The notes below the pieces were generated by a model that was not told where the DNA came from, did no database searches, and worked only from the letters and a program-made list of their open reading frames with translations. From the IMG/VR virus record IMGVR_UViG_3300043410_001242: a stretch of 64,000 nucleotides of DNA. One strand, given 5' to 3'. The position numbers and the translations under genes were made by a program. The DNA is from a virus. Below, piece by piece: positions 5,732-63,876 of this stretch; within the stretch, counting starts at the first letter, position 1; the number at the start of each line of letters is the position of its first letter.

Positions 5732-7540
5732 ATGGAAGAATACCTTGGTTTACAAATTGATTTAGATAGAGATTCTTTGTTTGATGAATTGGGCATCAAA
5801 CGATTACAAGAATCTTATATGCGTGAGGACGAAACGTCACCACAACATCGTTTTGCTTTTGTTTCTAAAGCATTTGGTTCCAATCTGGAACACTCACAAA
5901 GACTATATAATTATGCTAGTAAACATTGGTTATCATATTCTACTCCCATTCTTTCGTTCGGTCGTAGTAAAAGAGGGTTGCCAATATCATGTTTCTTAAA
6001 CTTTATAGAAGATACTGCGGAGGGATTAGTTGACAACTTATCGGAAACCAATTGGCTTAGTATGCTCGGCGGTGGGGTTGGCATTGGCTTTGGTATTCGT
6101 TCCGCTGATGATAAGTCTACTGGTGTTATGCCGCATCTTAAGATCTATGACTCCAGTTCTTTGGCTTACAGACAGGGACGTACTCGTAGGGGTTCTTATG
6201 CTGCTTATCTTGACATATCTCATCCTGATATAATTTCATTCTTAGAAATGAGAAAACCAACGGGCGATCCTAACGTCCGTTGTTTGAACTTACATCATGG
6301 TGTTAATATTACAGATGACTTCATGCACATCATTGAAAAGTGCATGATTGATCCAGAATCGAATGATGATTGGGAATTGAAAGATCCACACACCGGTGAA
6401 GTCAGAGAAGTGGTTTCAGCTAAGCACCTATGGCAGATGTTAATCGAAATCAGAATGCAGACTGGTGAACCTTATTTGCACTTTATTGACACAAGTAACA
6501 GACAGTTACCAGATTTTTTAAAGAAAAGAGGTTTGAAAATTAATCAATCTAATCTTTGTTCAGAGATTATATTGCCAACAAATGAAGAGAGAACTGCTGT
6601 ATGTTGTTTATCATCACTCAACTTGGAATATTTCGATGATTGGAAGAATGATACTAATTTCTTGCGTGACGTTGCTGAAATGCTTGATAATGTCCTTCAG
6701 TATTTCATTGATAATGCTCCTGATTCTATCTCTAGGGCACGCCATAGCGCATATAGGGAGCGCTCAATTGGTGTTGGTGCTCTTGGCTTCCATGCCTATC
6801 TGCAACGCAATAGAATTGCTTTTGAAGGTGTTATGGCCAAAGTTGCAAATAACAGAATCTTCAAACATATCAAAGAAGGTTTAGACATTGCTAATATTGA
6901 GATCGGAAAAGAACGTGGAGAGGCCCCTGACGCTGAAGGAACTGGTCGTAGATTCTCACACACATGTGCTATTGCTCCTAATGCATCTTCTTCCATCATC
7001 ATGGGGAACACTTCTCCTAGTATAGAACCATATAGAGCCAACGCATATAGACAGGATACATTATCTGGTGCTTTCATGAATAAGAATAAGCATCTCGACA
7101 CTGTTATTCGTGAATATTGCAACAGTCCAACGCCAGACGGAAAGATTGGAATGGATTATGATGAAATCTGGTCTTCTATCATTGCAAATGATGGGTCTGT
7201 ACAACATTTGTCATGGATGGACGAAATGACTAAAGATGTATTCAAAACATCTATGGAAATTGACCAAAGATGGATTGTAGAATTGGCTGCTGATAGACAG
7301 AATCACATTGACCAATCACAATCTTTGAATTTATTCTTTAGACCTGATGCCAATATTAAATATGTCCACGCTATTCATTTTATGGCATGGAAGAAAGGTG
7401 TAAAGACTCTTTATTACTGTCGTTCAGAGAAAATTGGAAAAGCGGATAAGGTTTCCAAGAAAATTGAAAGAGAAGTTATCAAAGAACTTGATATGACTCA
7501 AATCGCACAAGGAAATGATTGTATTGCATGTGAAGGATAA
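5732..7540 (+). CDS. nrdA: class I ribonucleotide reductase large subunit (no ATP cone)
   Basis: PISCF, SNLCSEI, IAPNASSS, KTLYYCRS, C-terminal CIACEG. Confidence 0.95.
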   Translation: MEEYLGLQIDLDRDSLFDELGIKRLQESYMREDETSPQHRFAFVSKAFGSNLEHSQRLYNYASKHWLSYSTPILSFGRSKRGLPISCFLNFIEDTAEGLVDNLSETNWLSMLGGGVGIGFGIRSADDKSTGVMPHLKIYDSSSLAYRQGRTRRGSYAAYLDISHPDIISFLEMRKPTGDPNVRCLNLHHGVNITDDFMHIIEKCMIDPESNDDWELKDPHTGEVREVVSAKHLWQMLIEIRMQTGEPYLHFIDTSNRQLPDFLKKRGLKINQSNLCSEIILPTNEERTAVCCLSSLNLEYFDDWKNDTNFLRDVAEMLDNVLQYFIDNAPDSISRARHSAYRERSIGVGALGFHAYLQRNRIAFEGVMAKVANNRIFKHIKEGLDIANIEIGKERGEAPDAEGTGRRFSHTCAIAPNASSSIIMGNTSPSIEPYRANAYRQDTLSGAFMNKNKHLDTVIREYCNSPTPDGKIGMDYDEIWSSIIANDGSVQHLSWMDEMTKDVFKTSMEIDQRWIVELAADRQNHIDQSQSLNLFFRPDANIKYVHAIHFMAWKKGVKTLYYCRSEKIGKADKVSKKIEREVIKELDMTQIAQGNDCIACEG

Positions 7541-7543
7541 TTT

Positions 7544-8065
7544 ATGGACCATGATACTGATGAACGTATGGTTAAACTGTTTGATGATGTTTTGTGCCCA
7601 GAACAATGTTCAGAGATCTATAATAGATTAATCAGTGAAGAGTGTTGGTCATTTACAGGACATAGTACCTTTCGTGAAGAAGGGTACATGTTTTGGCAAC
7701 ACGATCTAACAAATAATGATTTTTATTCCGATTTCTTTTTCAATAGAATATTAGAGATAACAGAACAAGATTTTGAATTGGTCAGAGTGTATGCAAATGG
7801 ACAGACCTATGGCCAACCAGGTCATTTGCATGTGGACGGTGAATGTACTGATACTTTCTTATATTATGCAAATCCTGAATGGGATGTCTCTTGGGGTGGT
7901 CATACTGTATTCTGCAATTCTGAAACACTTGAAAATTTCAGTTTTTTACCTAAACCAAATTCAGCTTTGCTGTTTGATAGTCACATACTACATTGTGGAA
8001 TGGATCCATCCAGACATTGTTATGACCTTAGAATATCAATCGCGTTTAAGTTGAAAAGGAAATGA
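7544..8065 (+). CDS. 2OG-Fe(II) oxygenase (prolyl-hydroxylase-like)
   Basis: HVD...WGGHTVF...LH...RISIAFK (HxD...H...R). Confidence 0.8.
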   Translation: MDHDTDERMVKLFDDVLCPEQCSEIYNRLISEECWSFTGHSTFREEGYMFWQHDLTNNDFYSDFFFNRILEITEQDFELVRVYANGQTYGQPGHLHVDGECTDTFLYYANPEWDVSWGGHTVFCNSETLENFSFLPKPNSALLFDSHILHCGMDPSRHCYDLRISIAFKLKRK

Positions 8066-8652
8066 TATACGCTGATTATATATACACCAAGAAAGTCAAT
8101 TTAGACTTAAATAAGATTCGTCAAAGTTGTTTTGTAATGCAAGATTACATTTTTTCTACTTTTGGTAATCAAACCAAATATTACACTGGAGAATCAACAT
8201 TGACAACACAACTATTTCTCAATTATAATTTACTGATGTATCCTAAACCGGGATTTCATCAATTATACTCAGAAATAAAAAACTTCTTCCATGAAGTATA
8301 TGATGGAACATATGAATCATTTTATATGCAAAGTTGGTTGAACTTCTATAATAAGGATGATTTCATAGATTGGCATAGTCACTGGCCAAAAGAAAAGGAA
8401 TCATGGCATGGTTTTTTCTGTGTTGACTGTGGTGAAAACATGAGTGGAACTTTATATCGAATAATGGACGTTCAGAATGAGATATTTGTTCCAAGTGAGA
8501 ACAATTTATTGGTTATAAGTAAAAGTGAGAAAGACATACATAAATCGACCGAGTGGTTAGATGAAAGAAATCCAAGAATAACTATTGCTTTCGATATAAT
8601 TCCAGACAAACACATCGATGTCAATTTACCAAACCACTGGATACCAACTTGA
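8062..8652 (+). CDS. putative 2OG-Fe(II) oxygenase
   Basis: WLN...WHSH...H...RITIAFD pattern. Confidence 0.6.
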   Translation: MIYADYIYTKKVNLDLNKIRQSCFVMQDYIFSTFGNQTKYYTGESTLTTQLFLNYNLLMYPKPGFHQLYSEIKNFFHEVYDGTYESFYMQSWLNFYNKDDFIDWHSHWPKEKESWHGFFCVDCGENMSGTLYRIMDVQNEIFVPSENNLLVISKSEKDIHKSTEWLDERNPRITIAFDIIPDKHIDVNLPNHWIPT

Positions 8653-8663
8653 TAGGATTATTA

Positions 8664-9644
8664 ATGAAGAAAATTAACAACTTAACAGAAGAACGGGCAT
8701 ATTTTAAACCATTTAATTATCCTTGGGCGTATGATGCTTGGTTAAAACACGAACAATCACATTGGCTTCACACAGAAGTTCCTATGCTTGAGGACGTTAA
8801 AGACTGGAAGAAAAAATTAACAAATGAAGAAAAACATTTTCTCACGCAAATTTTTAGATTTTTTACACAGGGAGACATTGACGTTGCTGGCGGTTATGTG
8901 CGTAATTATCTGCCTTATTTCCCTCAACCTGAAATTCGGATGATGTTGACTGGATTTGCAGCAAGAGAGGCATTACACATTGCTGCATATTCACACCTAA
9001 TCGAAACTCTTGGTTTACCAGAAACGACCTATAATGAATTTCTAGAATATACCGAAATGAAAGAGAAACATGACTATGTTATGGATCTTTCATCTAGAAA
9101 TGGAACAAAAGAGAATACAGCCAGACATATTGCAGTATTCTCAGCATTCACTGAAGGTATGCAACTTTTTTCTTCTTTTATTATGTTGCTTAATTTCCCC
9201 AGACATGGTAAAATGAAGGGTATGGGACAGATTGTTACTTGGTCGATTGTTGATGAGACTCAACATGCAGAATCGATGATCAAATTATTCAAGACCTACA
9301 TAGAAGAAAATCGTGAGATATGGAATGATGAACTGAAGTCTTCAATCTACACGGTTGCAGAAAGAATGGTTGAATTAGAGGATAAGTTTATTGATCTTGC
9401 ATTTTCTACCGGTGCAATGGAAAACATTACACACGAAGATGTAAAGAAATATATTCGTTATATCGCTGATCGCCGTTTGATCTCTATGGGACTCAAGGGC
9501 ATCTTCAAAGTAAAAAAGAACCCTTTGCCTTGGGTAGAGGAAATGATTAACGCACCAACACATACTAACTTTTTTGAGAATAGAGCTACAGACTATGCAA
9601 AAGGCGCACTAACAGGAAGTTGGGGTGATGTATGGGCTCATTAA
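8664..9644 (+). CDS. nrdB: class I ribonucleotide reductase small subunit
   Basis: FFTQGD, EALHIAAYS, TEGMQLFSSF, DETQH, NFFENRATDY. Confidence 0.95.
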   Translation: MKKINNLTEERAYFKPFNYPWAYDAWLKHEQSHWLHTEVPMLEDVKDWKKKLTNEEKHFLTQIFRFFTQGDIDVAGGYVRNYLPYFPQPEIRMMLTGFAAREALHIAAYSHLIETLGLPETTYNEFLEYTEMKEKHDYVMDLSSRNGTKENTARHIAVFSAFTEGMQLFSSFIMLLNFPRHGKMKGMGQIVTWSIVDETQHAESMIKLFKTYIEENREIWNDELKSSIYTVAERMVELEDKFIDLAFSTGAMENITHEDVKKYIRYIADRRLISMGLKGIFKVKKNPLPWVEEMINAPTHTNFFENRATDYAKGALTGSWGDVWAH

Positions 9645-16978: not shown

Positions 16979-17215
16979 GTGAACGAAAAAATTAGACAAT
17001 TAATGATGGAGGCAGGTGAATATGCCAATTCAGTGTGGGTTGATCCTATCACAAACAAAGAAGATCATATATCTTGGCATGATCTGTACAATGAGAAGTT
17101 TGCTGAACTAATCATTAAAGATTGTGCTAAAAATTGCTTGGGTATCGTAAGTAGTGGTGGTGACTTAGACTTCGCTATTTGGAAGATTAAGAAAGAATAT
17201 GGTATTGAAGAATGA
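16979..17215 (+). CDS. hypothetical protein (NEKI...FAELI..C family, repeated in window)
   Basis: Paralogs near 39762, 40512, 41121, 41813. Confidence 0.6.
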   Translation: MNEKIRQLMMEAGEYANSVWVDPITNKEDHISWHDLYNEKFAELIIKDCAKNCLGIVSSGGDLDFAIWKIKKEYGIEE

Positions 17216-17595
17216 ATGATTGTCCTATCTGTGGTGATGAAGGTACTGTCACCGAACATACAAGACAAAATAACTCTGAATATAAGAATGAATACTTTAA
17301 AGGTCTTCTGATTGATTCCTCTGAATGCTCTGCATGTGGTTCTGAGTTTGCGACACCGGAGCAGATTAACAGAAATGCTCAGAGGGCCAGAGAGAGACTG
17401 AGAGAGGATGGTATTATAGGGAACGCAAAACCGATCCATGCTTGGATTGATGAGTGGGTCTTAGAGTCGCTTAGAGAGAGGGATAGAGAGATTACTCTGA
17501 GAGAAAAGTTATATGGCAAACCTACCAGGAAGGGTTCTGCCCGGAAATTCCGGTCCAGGAAAATTTTTTGGAATAAGAAAAATCGAAAATTCTGA
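17212..17595 (+). CDS. MqsA/YgiT-type zinc-finger domain protein lacking the HTH
   Basis: CPICG...EYK...CSACGSEFATPEQINRN matches the MqsA N-terminal layout. Confidence 0.6.
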   Translation: MNDCPICGDEGTVTEHTRQNNSEYKNEYFKGLLIDSSECSACGSEFATPEQINRNAQRARERLREDGIIGNAKPIHAWIDEWVLESLRERDREITLREKLYGKPTRKGSARKFRSRKIFWNKKNRKF

Positions 17596-18848: not shown

Positions 18849-19070
18849 ATGGCTAAGTCAGATATTCGCGCTGAATTGAATACGGCAGTGGATGAATACC
18901 TCGCAAAAGGAGGTAAGATATTGGTATGCGAAACCAAGCAGGTAAAAGTATCCAGAAAGGTGAAGGTAAAACCCCACCTATTCATTAAACCATCTGAACC
19001 TCGTGGAGTGGTTTCTATGTTTTATCGTATTGATGAGAGACATAATGTAGGTGCTTGGAATAATTGGTAA
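18849..19070 (+). CDS. hypothetical protein
   Basis: GAGG RBS; EYLAKGGKI motif. Confidence 0.6.
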   Translation: MAKSDIRAELNTAVDEYLAKGGKILVCETKQVKVSRKVKVKPHLFIKPSEPRGVVSMFYRIDERHNVGAWNNW

Positions 19071-19097: not shown

Positions 19098-19126
19098 ATT
19101 ATACACTAGGAGATACTATATGTCAA
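19098..19126 (-). promoter_or_regulatory. leftward sigma70-type promoter overlapping an RBS
   Basis: Reverse complement TTGACA-17-TATAAT. Confidence 0.6.
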
Positions 19127-19293
19127 GCGTTTTAAATCAAATGGATTGGTTCGAAGAACTCGAATATGCACCTGAGAATACCATTGTAGAGGTATTAGAA
19201 GAGGATGAAGATAATGGTAATGATATTCGCACATATCGCAATTTTGATATTGATTTTGATGAAAGTCAATTTAGCGTTTGGGCAGATTTGTGA
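19120..19293 (+). CDS. acidic 57-aa hypothetical protein (not in ORF track)
   Basis: AGGAGA RBS; MSSVLNQMDWFEELE... Confidence 0.55.
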   Translation: MSSVLNQMDWFEELEYAPENTIVEVLEEDEDNGNDIRTYRNFDIDFDESQFSVWADL

Positions 19294-19302
19294 TAATAAC
19301 TA

Positions 19303-19331
19303 TTGACTTTTCTGAGTATATGTGATATAAT
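19303..19331 (+). promoter_or_regulatory. sigma70-type promoter with no downstream ORF
   Basis: TTGACT-17-TATAAT with TG extension. Confidence 0.7.
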
Positions 19332-19384
19332 GGAGAAGTAATATAAAAAATTTCTCTTGCCATACTCTCACTTAGTCGGACATA

Positions 19385-19567
19385 CCACTACATATAGTAT
19401 CAATCAATCGCTGACAACACTATATCCGCGACATGGTTCCGACTAACGACAGTGACCTCTACATATTGTGTCGCAATATCATTATAAGCACAAGATATAG
19501 TATCACATATCCTTATCAATTTACTATATCTTGTGTCTTTTTTATTCTAATATACTACATATAGTGT
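19385..19567. promoter_or_regulatory. array of six NrdR-box-like 16-mers
   Basis: CCACTACATATAGTAT 19385, ACACTATATCCGCGAC 19417, CCTCTACATATTGTGT 19456, GCACAAGATATAGTAT 19488, TTACTATATCTTGTGT 19521, ATACTACATATAGTGT 19552. Confidence 0.75.
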
Positions 19568-20198
19568 CCACGGATATATACTGTTTACACTTATTACCAT
19601 GGTATCTGGTATATTGTGGTTTTGGTATAACCTTATTACAATATGGACATTCTATTCTTGGTTGATTCTTAGCCTTCTGACTAATCTTCTCTCTGGCTAT
19701 ATCATCATGGGTTTTACCATACATTGCATTATTAATACCCTTAGACTTCACGGATAATTTGTTTCTGGATTCTTCTGTCCATATTCTATTCTTATTTGAT
19801 TGTATAATGGCATTTATAGACTTTTGGTTATTAGTCTTACCATATCTTGGACTATTCTCACCTGATAGCATTATACTATATTGTTTTTTTCTTTCTTCGG
19901 TGAATACATAACCTGACGCACCTTCGGCACCATCGGTTCTATTTCTTAATATACCCGTATTATTGTCTTTTCTGCCGAACCAACGGATATAATATCTCTC
20001 AAGGATAAATGACTGTAATTCGGTTAGATTATCTTGTATGATTATTATACGGGATTTATCTTTGGGTGGTAGTATTTCACCTTTCTTATATTTGTTATAG
20101 GCTCTATCGTCTTTGCCTTTACCAATATAATATGGTGTATAATCCTCTCTCAAATAGGCATAAACATAGAATGGTGTTGATTGAGCATATATACTCAT
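19542..20198 (-). CDS. free-standing GIY-YIG homing endonuclease with NUMOD3-like repeats
   Basis: [31 protein letters not shown]-terminal CPYC. Confidence 0.8.
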
Positions 20199-20500: not shown

Positions 20501-21172
20501 ATGGATATATCATTAACAGTTATTAGAAAGATAGCCAAAGAGAATGGTCTATCTGTTAATAATAATATACTGGCATTTGCACAAGGTATATCCAATCATG
20601 TATCGGGTAAGATTGAAACTGATATTAAGAAAAAGGTGGCGCGGGATATTGTTGAGATGCTCGGTACTAATGTTACTACCTCTGGTGGTACTGTTAAGGT
20701 TAAGTTTCGGAATGATTTGAGTTTTGATGATGTACGGGCATTATTTGATTATGATGGTGTGAATGGTGGTTTAGTATGGAAGAAGGACGGTAAACCTGCC
20801 GGTTCTGTTGAGCATCATGGTTATATTCGTATTGGTGTAAGAGGGAAAACATATAGGGCACACCATTTGGTATGGTTATGGCATCACGGTGTATTTCCTG
20901 ATACTATTGTGGACCATATTAATCAGATCAAGAATGATAATAGGATTGAGAATCTTCGGTTATCTGACCCGACTCTGAATAACCTTAATCGGACGACCGG
21001 TTCCAATAACACCTCTGGATATAAGGGTGTATCATATCTCAAGAAACGGAACAAGTATGAGGCATCCATTACAGTCAAAGGGAAAATGCACCGGTTAGGT
21101 CAATTCAATACCTTTGAGGAGGCCAAGTATGCACGAATGGCATATGAGGAAGAATTGTTGAACGGTGGTTAG
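20501..21172 (+). CDS. HNH endonuclease with AP2 domain
   Basis: YRAHHLVW, VDHIN..KNDNRIENLR, NNTSGYKGV, LGQFNTFEEA. Confidence 0.85.
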   Translation: MDISLTVIRKIAKENGLSVNNNILAFAQGISNHVSGKIETDIKKKVARDIVEMLGTNVTTSGGTVKVKFRNDLSFDDVRALFDYDGVNGGLVWKKDGKPAGSVEHHGYIRIGVRGKTYRAHHLVWLWHHGVFPDTIVDHINQIKNDNRIENLRLSDPTLNNLNRTTGSNNTSGYKGVSYLKKRNKYEASITVKGKMHRLGQFNTFEEAKYARMAYEEELLNGG

Positions 21173-21223
21173 CAGACTATTTCACGGATGCTGGCTTGAC
21201 TTTTTGGTTGGTTCTGATACAAT
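21156..21223 (+). promoter_or_regulatory. cassette promoter copy 3
   Basis: Boxes 22 bp apart, gap 12, TTGACT-16-TACAAT. Confidence 0.8.
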
Positions 21224-21229
21224 CTTTCC

Positions 21230-21424
21230 ATGATGAAAGTTAAGACAAAGACAGCGAAAGAAATGGTACTGGTATCCGAATGGTTAACTCGGTTTGGTAT
21301 CAATTACACTATTAAAGGGTTCACTATTCAATTCTCTGATATTGAATATCATCATTGGTTGATTATTAAATCAGCCGTGAGATTGAATACTGATTCTGTT
21401 ATTGACCATTTGGAGATTGAATAA
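21230..21424 (+). CDS. hypothetical protein (probably leaderless)
   Basis: ATG 7 nt after the -10. Confidence 0.55.
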   Translation: MMKVKTKTAKEMVLVSEWLTRFGINYTIKGFTIQFSDIEYHHWLIIKSAVRLNTDSVIDHLEIE

Positions 21425-51731: not shown

Positions 51732-52508
51732 ATGTCAGCTATTAGTGCAAATGCTGTTAGAGAGGAAGCACCAGTCTTGAATAAGGCTTGGTTGTCTTTC
51801 GCGTTTGGTTTGTATTTCGTATTCTATCTATGGGTACGTTGGTATGAAGGTGTATATGGTTGGTCCGCAGGACTTGATTCATTCGCACCTGAGTTTGAAA
51901 CCTATTGGATGAATTTCTTATATACAGAAATTGTCCTAGAAGTCACAACCGCAAGTATTCTTTGGGGTTATCTTTGGAAGTCAAGAGATCGTGATCTTGC
52001 CAATATTACACCAAGAGAAGAACTTCGCCGTAATATGACACACCTTGTATGGTTATTTGCTTATGCAAATGCAATCTACTGGGGTGCATCATACTTTACT
52101 GAACAAGATGGTACTTGGCATCAGACTATCGTAAGAGATACTGATTTTACTCCAAGTCATATCATTGAGTTCTATCTTACATACCCAATCTACATTATTA
52201 CTGGGTTTGCTGCATTCCTTTATGCAAAGACAAGACTTCCTTACTTCGCACAAGGACTTAGCCTTCCATACTTGGTAACTGTTGTAGGACCATTTATGAT
52301 CCTTCCAAATGTTGGTCTTAATGAATGGGGACACACCTTCTGGTTTATGGAGGAACTTTTTGTCGCCCCTTTACATTATGGTTTCGTGTTCTTTGGTTGG
52401 CTTGCTTTGGCTATTGCGGGTGTATTGCTACAGGTCTTCTCATCTTTTGCTGGTTTAATCGGCGATCAGATTGTTGAGTCTGTTGATAAGGGTTTGATTG
52501 CAAAGTAA
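51732..52508 (+). CDS. pmoC: particulate methane monooxygenase subunit C
   Basis: WSAGLDSFAPEFETYWMN, EQDGTWHQTIVRDTDFTPSH, NVGLNEWGHTFWFMEELFVAPLH, C-terminal GLIAK. Confidence 0.97.
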   Translation: MSAISANAVREEAPVLNKAWLSFAFGLYFVFYLWVRWYEGVYGWSAGLDSFAPEFETYWMNFLYTEIVLEVTTASILWGYLWKSRDRDLANITPREELRRNMTHLVWLFAYANAIYWGASYFTEQDGTWHQTIVRDTDFTPSHIIEFYLTYPIYIITGFAAFLYAKTRLPYFAQGLSLPYLVTVVGPFMILPNVGLNEWGHTFWFMEELFVAPLHYGFVFFGWLALAIAGVLLQVFSSFAGLIGDQIVESVDKGLIAK

Positions 52509-56597: not shown

Positions 56598-57239
56598 ATG
56601 AAAGTCTATTTGTCCAATTATCGTAACCATTGGTTATCACCTTATCACATTCTGGAAAAGGTATTGTTCTGGAAAGATTGGGAAAATATTGATTACGATG
56701 AACCTTGGGTTGATAAATGGTCAGATAGACTTGAACCATCATGTATTAAATTACAGAAGGTATTGGATTTTATTCATCCTCGCATCACTTATGTGAAGAT
56801 TGATAAGTATGATACATGGGACATGGATAAAACTCTGTCTCCTATTATTCTTCCTATGTTGAAACAATTGAAGGCAACCAAACATGGTGCGCCTATGGTA
56901 TCTGATGATGATGTACCAGAAGAATTAAAAAGCACTTCTGCACTACCTAAAGAAAATGAATGGGATACTGATAGCAATCATTTCAGACGATGGGATTATG
57001 TCATAGGTGAAATGATTTGGGCTTTTGAACAATTAGTTGATGAGAATTGGGAAGACCAATATTACACAGGAGAAAGTGATTATATTTTCGTCAAATCGGA
57101 TGAATATGGTTTGATGGTTATGGAGAAAGGTCCAAAACACACTCAAGAATGGGATCGTGAAGGTTGGACAAATCACCATAAACGCATAGATAATGGATTG
57201 AGGTTGTTTGGTACTTACTATAGAGGACTATGGTCGTAA
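56598..57239 (+). CDS. conserved phage hypothetical protein, C-terminus altered by endonuclease insertion
   Basis: DTWDMD.TL..IILPMLKQL...LFGTYYRGLW. Confidence 0.7.
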   Translation: MKVYLSNYRNHWLSPYHILEKVLFWKDWENIDYDEPWVDKWSDRLEPSCIKLQKVLDFIHPRITYVKIDKYDTWDMDKTLSPIILPMLKQLKATKHGAPMVSDDDVPEELKSTSALPKENEWDTDSNHFRRWDYVIGEMIWAFEQLVDENWEDQYYTGESDYIFVKSDEYGLMVMEKGPKHTQEWDREGWTNHHKRIDNGLRLFGTYYRGLWS

Positions 57240-57860
57240 TTTACATTTATCAAAGTGCCATCTTTTCATATTTGTTAATTGACCAACTTTACCACAATGA
57301 GGACAATCAACTTTAGTTGTATTATTTTGATGACATTTCAGATTTTTCTTATGATTTTCACTCATTGGTTTTGATACACCTCTAGTTGTTAATGATATTT
57401 TTCTTTTGGTTTCCTCTGAAAGTTTTGGTATTGGTGTTATGCCTGATTTAAAATTTATTACCCTAGATTCGGTTCTTTTTCTTATATGTTCTTTAGTTTG
57501 GGGTTTTGGTTTTCCTTTAGTTTTTATTGATTGTTTAAGTCTTTCTTCTGATGTTCTTACTCTACCAAAACAACCATCACCACCAAAAGTTGAATTATAA
57601 CCATTATGGAATGAATCATATTCATTAATGAAATAATTTTCCATTTCTTTTAATGTGTGATCCTTATCTGTTGATTGATATATGATTTCCCAAATAAAAT
57701 TATCCCAACCATATTTCCTTATGGCACGATAAAATTTACAATCTTGATTTTTGGATGCGGATTTATGAATTCTTTGACGATTGGGATAATTGGAATCAAA
57801 TCCAATATACACTTTATTGTTTATGGTATTTCTGGCACTATAGATGGTATAAATATTCAT
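57228..57860 (-). CDS. free-standing GIY-YIG homing endonuclease
   Basis: IYSARNTINNKVYIG, AIRKYG, GYNSTFGGDG, NUMOD3-like SEETKRKIS, CPHCGK. Confidence 0.85.
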   Translation of the reverse strand: MNIYTIYSARNTINNKVYIGFDSNYPNRQRIHKSASKNQDCKFYRAIRKYGWDNFIWEIIYQSTDKDHTLKEMENYFINEYDSFHNGYNSTFGGDGCFGRVRTSEERLKQSIKTKGKPKPQTKEHIRKRTESRVINFKSGITPIPKLSEETKRKISLTTRGVSKPMSENHKKNLKCHQNNTTKVDCPHCGKVGQLTNMKRWHFDKCKLRP

Positions 57861-62884: not shown

Positions 62885-62913
62885 TTGACAAAAGGAGAGG
62901 AATGATATATAAT
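62885..62913 (+). promoter_or_regulatory. sigma70-type promoter of tmRNA
   Basis: TTGACA-17-TATAAT with TG extension. Confidence 0.85.
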
Positions 62914-62917
62914 ACAA

Positions 62918-63242
62918 GGATTCGTTGATGTTGACAAAATAGGTCACCTTGGACGGGAGTTCGACTCTCCCCACCTCCACCAAAAGCACATTGGGCACCC
63001 TGGTTAACGATAACACCTGAACCCAATCTTAATCATTGTAACAGTGTGCTTCTGATGGGGGTGTATTGGTTTTCGACAGGGGATAGTAAAGGTCAACGGA
63101 GAATCGGCAAAGCTAAAGTCGTTAGGATTGGGAGTTCCCGGTCAAAGAGGCAAATTAAATTAAACGCAAACGATGACGTTTATTCTTACGCACTAGCTGC
63201 TTAAGCGGGGTTTGGGGGTTCCTTGTCAAATAATACCCCCTC
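62918..63242 (+). ncRNA. ssrA: circularly permuted (two-piece) tmRNA
   Basis: T-arm and CACCTCCACCA ending 62982 come before 5' GGGGGTG at 63057 (G3.U70 pair); tag ANDDVYSYALAA* at 63166-63204. Confidence 0.92.
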
Positions 63243-63258
63243 TAATTTTGAGGGTGAC

Positions 63259-63876
63259 ATGAGTTTTTCTGAAGATGGTTTTGAAGTAGTAAGATCCTTC
63301 ATAAATCCACAAACAATGAATCTATTGAAGCACGAATATCATACACTACTGGACTTATTGTTTGAAAATCAAACATATAGTGAACAATCTATCAAGTTTC
63401 CAACAGGAGAAGTACTGACCTGTTTCAATTGGTATTCTCCAGTATTCACTGAATCTCTGTCCAAGTTATTGCAAAATAAAGTAGAAGAAATTGTAGAAAA
63501 GAAATTAGTTCCAACATACAGTATGGTGAGAACCTATAAAACTGGAGATGAATTATATAAACACAGAGACAGGCCGAGTTGTCAATACTCTGTTACTATG
63601 CCAATATTGACATCTATTAATTGGCCTATATACATAACTGATAGAAAAAATGTTAACAGAAAAGTATACCTAAACGAAGGTGATATGCTTGTTTATGATG
63701 GTTTTCTGGAACATTGGAGAGAAAAATATGAAGGTGAAAAACACACACAATGCTTCCTACATTGGGTTGACGTTAATGGAAAATATAAATACCTAAAATA
63801 TGACGGAAGAGCCAATTTAGCTCTACCAATGGTGAAAATAACAGAAGAAAATGAAGCTTTCTTCAACAAACACTAA
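63259..63876 (+). CDS. 2OG-Fe(II) oxygenase
   Basis: PTYS..R.Y..GD.L.KHRDRPSC.YS, EHWRE, Q.FLHWV. Confidence 0.8.
   Translation: MSFSEDGFEVVRSFINPQTMNLLKHEYHTLLDLLFENQTYSEQSIKFPTGEVLTCFNWYSPVFTESLSKLLQNKVEEIVEKKLVPTYSMVRTYKTGDELYKHRDRPSCQYSVTMPILTSINWPIYITDRKNVNRKVYLNEGDMLVYDGFLEHWREKYEGEKHTQCFLHWVDVNGKYKYLKYDGRANLALPMVKITEENEAFFNKH

Follow-up and report, generated by a model that had tools for sequence, protein, structure and literature searches.

Phage replication is limited by the supply of dNTPs, whose synthesis in bacteria is governed by a near-universal switch, NrdR. Why, then, should a phage carry a row of NrdR operators at a place without a ribonucleotide reductase (RNR) gene beside them? 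The question was raised by a stretch of 64,000 nucleotides (the window; GC 36%) belonging to a phage contig some 170 kb long, in which a first-pass annotation, made from the letters alone, had picked out six NrdR-box-like 16-mers and proposed that they act as a decoy for the host repressor. A blastn search of INPHARED with the array region gave no DNA match among known phages, and the best match to the phage NrdA among known phage records is just 61% identical. T4-type replication genes are present in the window, among them RNase H and, on our own reading, a primase-like Zn-ribbon protein for which Pfam gave no family.

The boxes and the operators of the predicted host

The six 16-mers begin, as first reported, at 19385, 19417, 19456, 19488, 19521 and 19552, in steps of 32, 39, 32, 33 and 31. 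Matches to the consensus acaCwAtATaTwGtgt amount to 13, 9, 13, 13, 13 and 14 of 16 positions for boxes 1 to 6, and the claim of six NrdR-box-like sites held for five of them (13-14 of 16) but not for the one at 19417, which is a half-site. Scored with a matrix built from sites of the predicted host order (see below), box 1 (19385-19400) reached 15.7 bits, box 3 (19456-19471) 15.4 bits, box 4 (19488-19503) 16.5 bits, box 5 (19521-19536), an inverted copy of box 4, 13.5 bits, and box 6 (19552-19567), which lies within the last codons of a convergent endonuclease ORF, 16.9 bits. The so-called box 2 (19417-19432) scored 1.6 bits, having a perfect left half-site only, and is part of a conserved sequence block (block B, below). 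The spacers between successive boxes are 16 bp (1-2), 23 bp (2-3), 16 bp (3-4), 17 bp (4-5) and 15 bp (5-6). An optimum of 15-17 bp has been measured for four NrdR proteins, with tight binding requiring two boxes (PMC12051234), and the array spacers of 16, 16, 17 and 15 bp all fall within this range of about three helical turns. The 14-bp perfect inverted repeat of boxes 4 and 5 (19489-19502 and 19522-19535) was recovered, as were the paired 9-nt arms said to enclose boxes 1 and 2 (at 19372 and at 19438-19446).

The nearest nrd genes lie 10-14 kb away, in agreement with the distance of about 10 kb first given. They are the phage's own nrdA (5732-7540) and nrdB (8649-9644), which occupy 5732-9644 on the plus strand with two ORFs in between, and no other box pair at canonical spacing was found anywhere in the 64-kb window, including upstream of these two genes. 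Two box-like 16-mers (above 8 and above 12 bits) do occur at 57807-57850 with a non-canonical distance of 28 bp, near the start of another endonuclease gene (57228-57860, minus strand). An NrdR operator is expected at the promoter of an RNR gene or another regulated gene, and the array stands at neither.

The phage carries a pmoC gene (51732-52508, plus strand), which formed the basis of host prediction. Because its product is 79-91% identical to PmoC of Methylococcales, the host is most likely a gammaproteobacterial methanotroph of this order. A host lacking nrdR had been named as a finding that would speak against the decoy, and relatives of the predicted host do encode the repressor: NrdR was found above the TIGR00244 cut-off in three of five Methylococcales genomes, both negatives being MAGs. 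Five Methylococcales assemblies (G010, G019, G025, G032 and G042) contain genes for RNR large subunits that, at about 600 residues, are as long as the phage NrdA (602 residues, ATP-cone not detected); these could be phage-derived or mis-binned phage contigs.

Searching upstream of RNR genes in 45 Methylococcales genomes yielded 37 box pairs at steps of 30-33 bp, and their 74 boxes made up the scoring matrix. This matrix is partly circular, the host site search having been seeded with the published consensus, while the context of the sites (spacing, promoter cores and RNR genes downstream) is independent of the seed. With it, five phage boxes score 13.5-16.9 bits against a host-site median of 15.4 bits, and box 2 falls under every host site. 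A score of 12 bits or more is reached at only 8 positions of the window, 5 of them in the array; matches of at least 13 of 16 to the consensus likewise number 8, of which 5 are inside 19385-19567. Dinucleotide shuffling of 19340-19600 (2000 replicates) gave a mean of 0.027 sites of at least 12 bits, compared with five in the real sequence, and none of the shuffles contained two such sites; the scores are thus well above the background level that had been set as the first check. Matrices for class I and class II sites, run separately, gave a slight and non-decisive preference of the phage boxes for class II.

The resemblance to host sites extends to single positions. Box 6 is one W position away from an RNR box of Methylobacter tundripaludum, boxes 1 and 3 are similar to one of Methylovulum, down to its non-consensus C at position 7, and this C is common to phage boxes and to the boxes of both Methylobacter and Methylovulum. 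This match to sites of the host order strongly supports reading the array as canonically spaced NrdR boxes remote from any nrd gene. Taken together, the comparisons make it well supported that 19385-19567 comprises five selected, host-type NrdR operators and one half-site.

The host class Ia (nrdA) promoters are strikingly uniform in order: box 1, a TTGAC -35, and box 2 containing a TATAGT -10. Tandem DnaA boxes precede this series in Methylococcales nrdA promoters (L095-L126), a design in methanotrophs of which we know no description. The phage box pairs were considered as promoters of the same style and rejected on reading the sequence: boxes 1, 4 and 6 do contain a -10-like TATAGT, but nothing 16-18 bp ahead of it would serve as a -35.

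The locus in related phages

The array lies between ORF57 (19120-19293, plus strand), a small conserved early gene directly upstream with 16 homologue clusters and no family in a Pfam search, and two homing endonuclease genes. The first of these is free-standing and convergent (19542-20198, minus strand; NUMOD3 with a GIY-YIG-like N-terminus), and the second runs in the plus direction (20501-21172; HNH_3 and AP2). A strong sigma-70-type promoter with a TG-extended -10 (19303-19331, plus strand) fires into the array; the annotated element was confirmed, with TTGACT-17-TATAAT matching at 11 of 12 positions and the upstream TG present. Equally, no convincing plus-strand ORF follows it, as had been noted: only ORFs of 43-44 codons occur, and the 43-codon one has neither a Shine-Dalgarno-like sequence ahead of its start nor a counterpart in the related locus L143. 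The boxes overlap no -35 or -10 core and no same-strand gene comes after them. Upstream of ORF57, a 73-residue product encoded at 18849-19067 (plus strand) matches the SutA RNA-polymerase-binding domain PF20661 just under the cut-off (E = 1e-6), and its homologue in L142 gives the same weak match; it may be a phage-encoded modulator of host RNA polymerase. Scans for tRNAs and Rfam families found nothing in the array region, the sole match in the window being a phage-encoded, circularly permuted tmRNA at 62.9 kb (62889-63295, plus strand; RF04321, 109.6 bits) with the tag ANDDVYSYALAA.

With ORF57 and a 731-residue neighbour as anchors, eleven related loci were found. Conservation in relatives had been proposed as a check on the array, and the answer was divided: it is present in three loci (the window, L014 and L143) and missing from eight. 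The array is thus lineage-specific, and because eight of the eleven loci do without it, it is dispensable. The promoter is common to all relatives, being kept in L004 and L014, with L143 having another type of promoter and leader. None of the eight array-less relatives has an NrdR box. Seven contain an IHF-consensus site followed by a co-directional small ORF, often with the site bracketed by an inverted repeat; in the eighth, L142, the same IHF-type site was seen by eye. In the array-bearing loci the IHF site has been lost. No box cluster was found in about 110 kb of related phage loci, and exact-pattern scans of IMG/VR and JGI metagenomes with the array and with leader segments returned nothing, or only the L004 contig. 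The slot, in a hypervariable intergenic region among early genes, is a cassette-exchange hot spot, in which the downstream ORFs differ in each relative.

The two array-bearing relatives allowed boxes and spacers to be compared. The contig of L014, a close relative, breaks off within box 4; boxes 1 and 3 are retained there, as is the beginning of box 4, and within the strong boxes changes are confined to degenerate W positions, box 1 having one and box 3 being identical. L143 is more divergent. Its six boxes, in steps of 32, 15, 32, 34 and 33, include one that fits the consensus perfectly (22.1 bits) and are followed by a convergent ORF. Box 5 is identical at 15 of 16 positions to the L143 box at 586, and box 6 at 14 of 16 to the one at 619. 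In the window-L143 alignment, columns inside boxes in both sequences were 81% identical (48 of 59) versus 47% (52 of 110) for the remaining columns (Fisher p = 1.6e-5). The expectation that boxes and spacing would be conserved among relatives is therefore borne out where the array occurs, the boxes being kept in L014 and L143 while the spacers decay. The 5' boxes sit at different positions in the window and L143 lineages, and box 1, being absent from L143, was gained separately. Boxes gained at different places in two lineages fit selection for more sites. Boxes kept, spacers decayed and boxes added independently are together the pattern of selection on protein-binding sites.

Two other blocks in the leader follow a different course. 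Block A (ACTWAGTCGGAYA; 19370-19382, plus strand), at the predicted transcript start, is found in the leaders of nine of ten relatives, with or without the array, L013 being the one that differs. It can pair with 19438-19446 in the window and in L014, where the 19372/19438 pairing is weaker and has no compensating change. Block B (TATAYCCGCGAC; 19421-19432, plus strand) contains the half-site of box 2, is common to all relatives, and is followed 6 nt on by TGCGAG in most of them. Each block is unique in the 64 kb, and no conserved RNA pairing involves them. Because block B is conserved even in array-less relatives, box 2 is primarily part of something other than the array.

In two array-less relatives the slot holds sites for another host factor. 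L008 (1020-1060) and L009 (810-850) each have two perfect DnaA boxes and a near-perfect one in tandem, at steps of 12-13, directly after a conserved GCGAC block and about 20 bp before the IHF-consensus site. The first NrdR boxes of L143 occupy the same place. Among the 37 host promoters, 17, all of class Ia, have tandem DnaA boxes ahead of NrdR box 1 at a distance of 24-47 bp, in most cases 26 or 37-38 bp. In E. coli, nrdAB is controlled by both DnaA and NrdR, DnaA acting as a repressor (PMC2500167). Different phage lineages thus carry, at one locus, either of the operator types of host nrdA, NrdR or DnaA, with the promoter absent.

The right-hand border of the array records how the endonuclease genes came in. 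A remnant of the ancestral downstream block (CCACGGATATAT; 19568-19583, plus strand), which in relatives is directly ahead of the next plus-strand ORF, marks the left edge of the endonuclease insertion. L004 represents the empty site: there the counterpart of 19568-19583 lies in the promoter spacer of a homologue of 21230-21424, and comparison with it indicates that in the window both endonuclease genes were inserted into this ancestral promoter. Box 6 occupies the place of its -35. A past role of box 6 as operator of that promoter is possible, but it is not the present one, because the promoter is now 1.6 kb away with its own cassette at 21194.

Proposed sequestration of host NrdR and competing explanations

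What could such an array do? With no promoter core under the boxes and no same-strand gene after them, sequestration of a bound protein would be the most likely effect, and a sink for host NrdR is our leading reading, although one that we hold only tentatively. Judged by sequence, the array has several high-affinity sites that are uncoupled from a regulated gene and kept by selection, as a sink should. The dATP/ATP-loaded NrdR tetramer should bind pairs 3-4, 4-5 and 5-6, and pair 1-2 more weakly. With two boxes to each RNR operon, the NrdR boxes of a cell are few. The five or six brought in by a single phage genome would roughly double the cell's high-affinity NrdR sites, and replication would multiply them further. 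NrdR would then be stripped off the host RNR promoters, and host dNTP synthesis would stay on. Such a sink could matter to a phage whose reductase has no ATP-cone, in that this enzyme could raise dATP, the signal for NrdR to shut down host RNR. We infer binding by NrdR, its titration and the consequent derepression of host RNR; in another system the host NrdR regulon is strongly induced during phage infection (PMC6755750).

Several points count against the sink. Besides its absence from eight of the eleven related loci, the array travels beside a mobile endonuclease gene, and co-conversion could spread it without benefit to the phage. Derepressing host RNR may bring little to a phage that has its own nrdAB and whose host chromosome may not stay transcribed. 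A sink would also be partly redundant, since dNTP depletion alone already releases NrdR, and the place of the array, just behind a strong promoter, also suits a roadblock or insulator. The decoy is compatible with all observations, but the same observations fit barrier, architectural or hitch-hiking roles.

A wider form of the sink brings in the DnaA boxes. The slot could hold interchangeable cassettes that act as copy-number-amplified sinks, for NrdR in the window, L014 and L143 and for DnaA in L008 and L009. Host dNTP synthesis would then be reprogrammed by DNA sites only, no protein effector being needed, and homing endonucleases would carry the cassettes along as they spread. We regard this as possible but doubtful.

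The main rival of the sink, in our judgement rather unlikely, is an NrdR-dependent barrier or insulator between the strong early promoter and the convergent endonuclease gene, in which bound NrdR and hairpins formed by the boxes in RNA would stop rightward transcription. The promoter at 19303-19331 fires into the array, and the inverted repeat of boxes 4 and 5 followed by a T-run (19489-19547, plus strand; 14-bp perfect stem, 19-nt loop) is terminator-like and ends a predicted transcript of about 210 nt. A terminator scan did not list this element, whose loop exceeds 8 nt and whose stem is AT-rich. L143 likewise has a promoter, an array with an analogous box-pair hairpin and T-run, and a convergent ORF. 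A convergent ORF follows both arrays that can be seen to their end, so that array and convergent ORF occur together in 2 of 2 loci with visible downstream sequence and in 0 of 8 array-less relatives. With such a barrier, antisense read-through into the endonuclease gene would depend on dATP/ATP status. By contrast, an ordinary terminator would suffice for such a task, and five or six operators at exact NrdR spacing are unneeded. T-runs beside NrdR boxes are common also at untranscribed host sites, and the terminator look may be a by-product. Linkage could explain the co-occurrence of array and convergent ORF equally well. The idea that the window and L143 share the same endonuclease was not supported; their convergent ORFs have just a 19-residue Zn-finger motif in common, which argues against one conserved cassette.

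Alternatively, the array might be a neutral relic, its boxes captured from an NrdR-regulated nrd promoter of the host or of another phage and spread by endonuclease co-conversion. The two endonuclease genes flanking the site, its nature as a cassette-exchange hot spot and the absence of the array from most relatives are what a hitch-hiker would predict. However, capture of a promoter would supply two boxes rather than the five or six seen, and the boxes are far better conserved than the spacers between the window and L143 (the p value given above). Moreover, boxes were added at different positions in two lineages, and all five are of host-site quality. We thus consider a neutral origin improbable.

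Still less probable, in our view, is a replication origin or nucleoprotein assembly in which NrdR, DnaA or IHF would serve as interchangeable architectural or licensing factors; the promoter, blocks A and B, the host-factor sites and an AT-rich stretch would together form an origin-like element. In place of the array, relatives carry IHF-consensus sites flanked by inverted repeats, and one has three DnaA boxes, while the array-bearing loci have lost the IHF site. A strong promoter without a gene also recalls transcript-primed origins, of which oriF and oriG of T4 are examples. Such origin-type host-factor sites (DnaA boxes and IHF-like sites) were found in the relatives only, and NrdR is not known to us to take part in replication. 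Since NrdR binds in the presence of dATP, an origin licensed by dNTPs would need the reverse, should binding block firing. Nor does the locus have a strand switch or an inflection of the skew of its own, the composition shift near 18-20 kb coinciding with a change in gene class.

The first-pass annotation had offered, as its own alternative, an NrdR-gated non-coding RNA or priming transcript. The predicted RNA (19338-19550, 213 nt) folds at -44.8 kcal/mol (z = -4.6), and with a promoter and a terminator-like end in place it could be a structured RNA with stems built from the boxes, its NrdR resemblance being incidental. But palindromic repeats fold well by construction, and across 10 leader sequences the consensus energy was -1.6 kcal/mol with no compensatory pairs. 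A conserved leader RNA structure was accordingly rejected; the lack of a consensus structure or covariation across the ten relatives largely refutes the structured RNA and, the RNA structure not being conserved, weakens the gated transcript. No Rfam family was matched, and the window and L143 keep the NrdR consensus while the pairing partners differ, leaving a structured RNA very unlikely.

Least likely of all, and hardly to be expected, are sites for a DNA-binding protein of the phage instead of host NrdR: repeated operators for their own regulators are frequent in phage genomes and a 127-residue Zn-ribbon protein is encoded 2 kb upstream (17212-17595, plus strand), but the boxes agree with the host's own sites position by position, the NrdR ribbon model matches this product at just E = 0.23, and its homologues occur in array-less relatives too. 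It is closest to the Lar restriction alleviation family (PF14354, E = 9e-6, under the cut-off) and to MqsA. A phage NrdR within the window was rejected by tblastn (E of at least 0.67; 64 of about 170 kb searched) and a Zn-ribbon domain search.

Known operators, endonuclease cassettes and titration loci

As a selected array with nothing to regulate, the orphan boxes would be a natural case of a virus manipulating, or reading, a host regulator by means of non-coding DNA alone. Were it only a barrier or a hitch-hiker, it would still be a clear case of host operator sequences recruited and kept by a phage, and a systematic search of phage intergenic regions for orphan clusters of host-factor sites seems worthwhile. 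The literature that we searched contained neither a phage-borne orphan NrdR array nor a natural phage DNA decoy for a host repressor, while some phages are known to encode NrdR-like proteins (PMC8790148).

Box-like sites in other phages were met along the way. A 17-mer from box 5 had 43 matches in IMG/VR, mostly single chance sites, with one group holding a plausible pair and another falling in a coding repeat; none is related to the array locus or counted here in its favour. An NrdR-like box pair of 18.0 and 17.0 bits with a step of 33 is present in unrelated IMG/VR phages (L166:9138-9190, also L146, L152, L167 and L171). The pair is intergenic, with a terminase small subunit gene on one side and, on the other, small ORFs and then a GP88-family gene, and no class I or II RNR gene was found in the stretch examined. 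NrdR boxes away from nrd genes may thus be commoner in phages than assumed. In L178 (6957-7035), L162 (705-768), L176 and L183, an ORF encoding a Ser/Thr/Ala-rich repeat contains three or four box-like repeats with steps of 15 and 32, which are probably coding repeats that mimic the motif.

Compared with bacterial NrdR operators (the Rodionov and Gelfand consensus; PMC12051234), the array has the same 16-bp palindrome, 15-17-bp spacers, helical phasing and pairing of boxes, and the likeness to Methylococcales NrdR sites goes down to clade-specific details. It differs in number and place: bacterial operators have two boxes at an nrd gene, whereas the phage has five or six without one, on a phage genome and beside a convergent endonuclease gene. 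The host nrdA promoters have their -35 between the boxes and their -10 within box 2, and the phage boxes overlap neither element. Both kinds of element found in the Methylococcales and E. coli nrdA promoters occur among the phage lineages (NrdR boxes in the window, L014 and L143, and DnaA boxes in L008 and L009), but no single phage locus was seen with both kinds, with the promoter core or with an nrd gene.

The endonuclease genes resemble the free-standing seg and mob cassettes of T4-like phages, being GIY-YIG/NUMOD3 and HNH genes in an intergenic region that split an ancestral promoter. Such cassettes are not known to us to carry operator arrays for a host repressor.

Finally, titration loci such as datA of E. 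coli, which acts on DnaA, and synthetic decoy arrays (PMC7826281) are like the phage array in that high-affinity sites are clustered without a gene to regulate and would act according to their copy number; for the phage array, titration is only proposed. The likeness to datA extends to the relatives, since datA is a DnaA-box cluster beside an IHF-like site, as is the same slot in L008 and L009.
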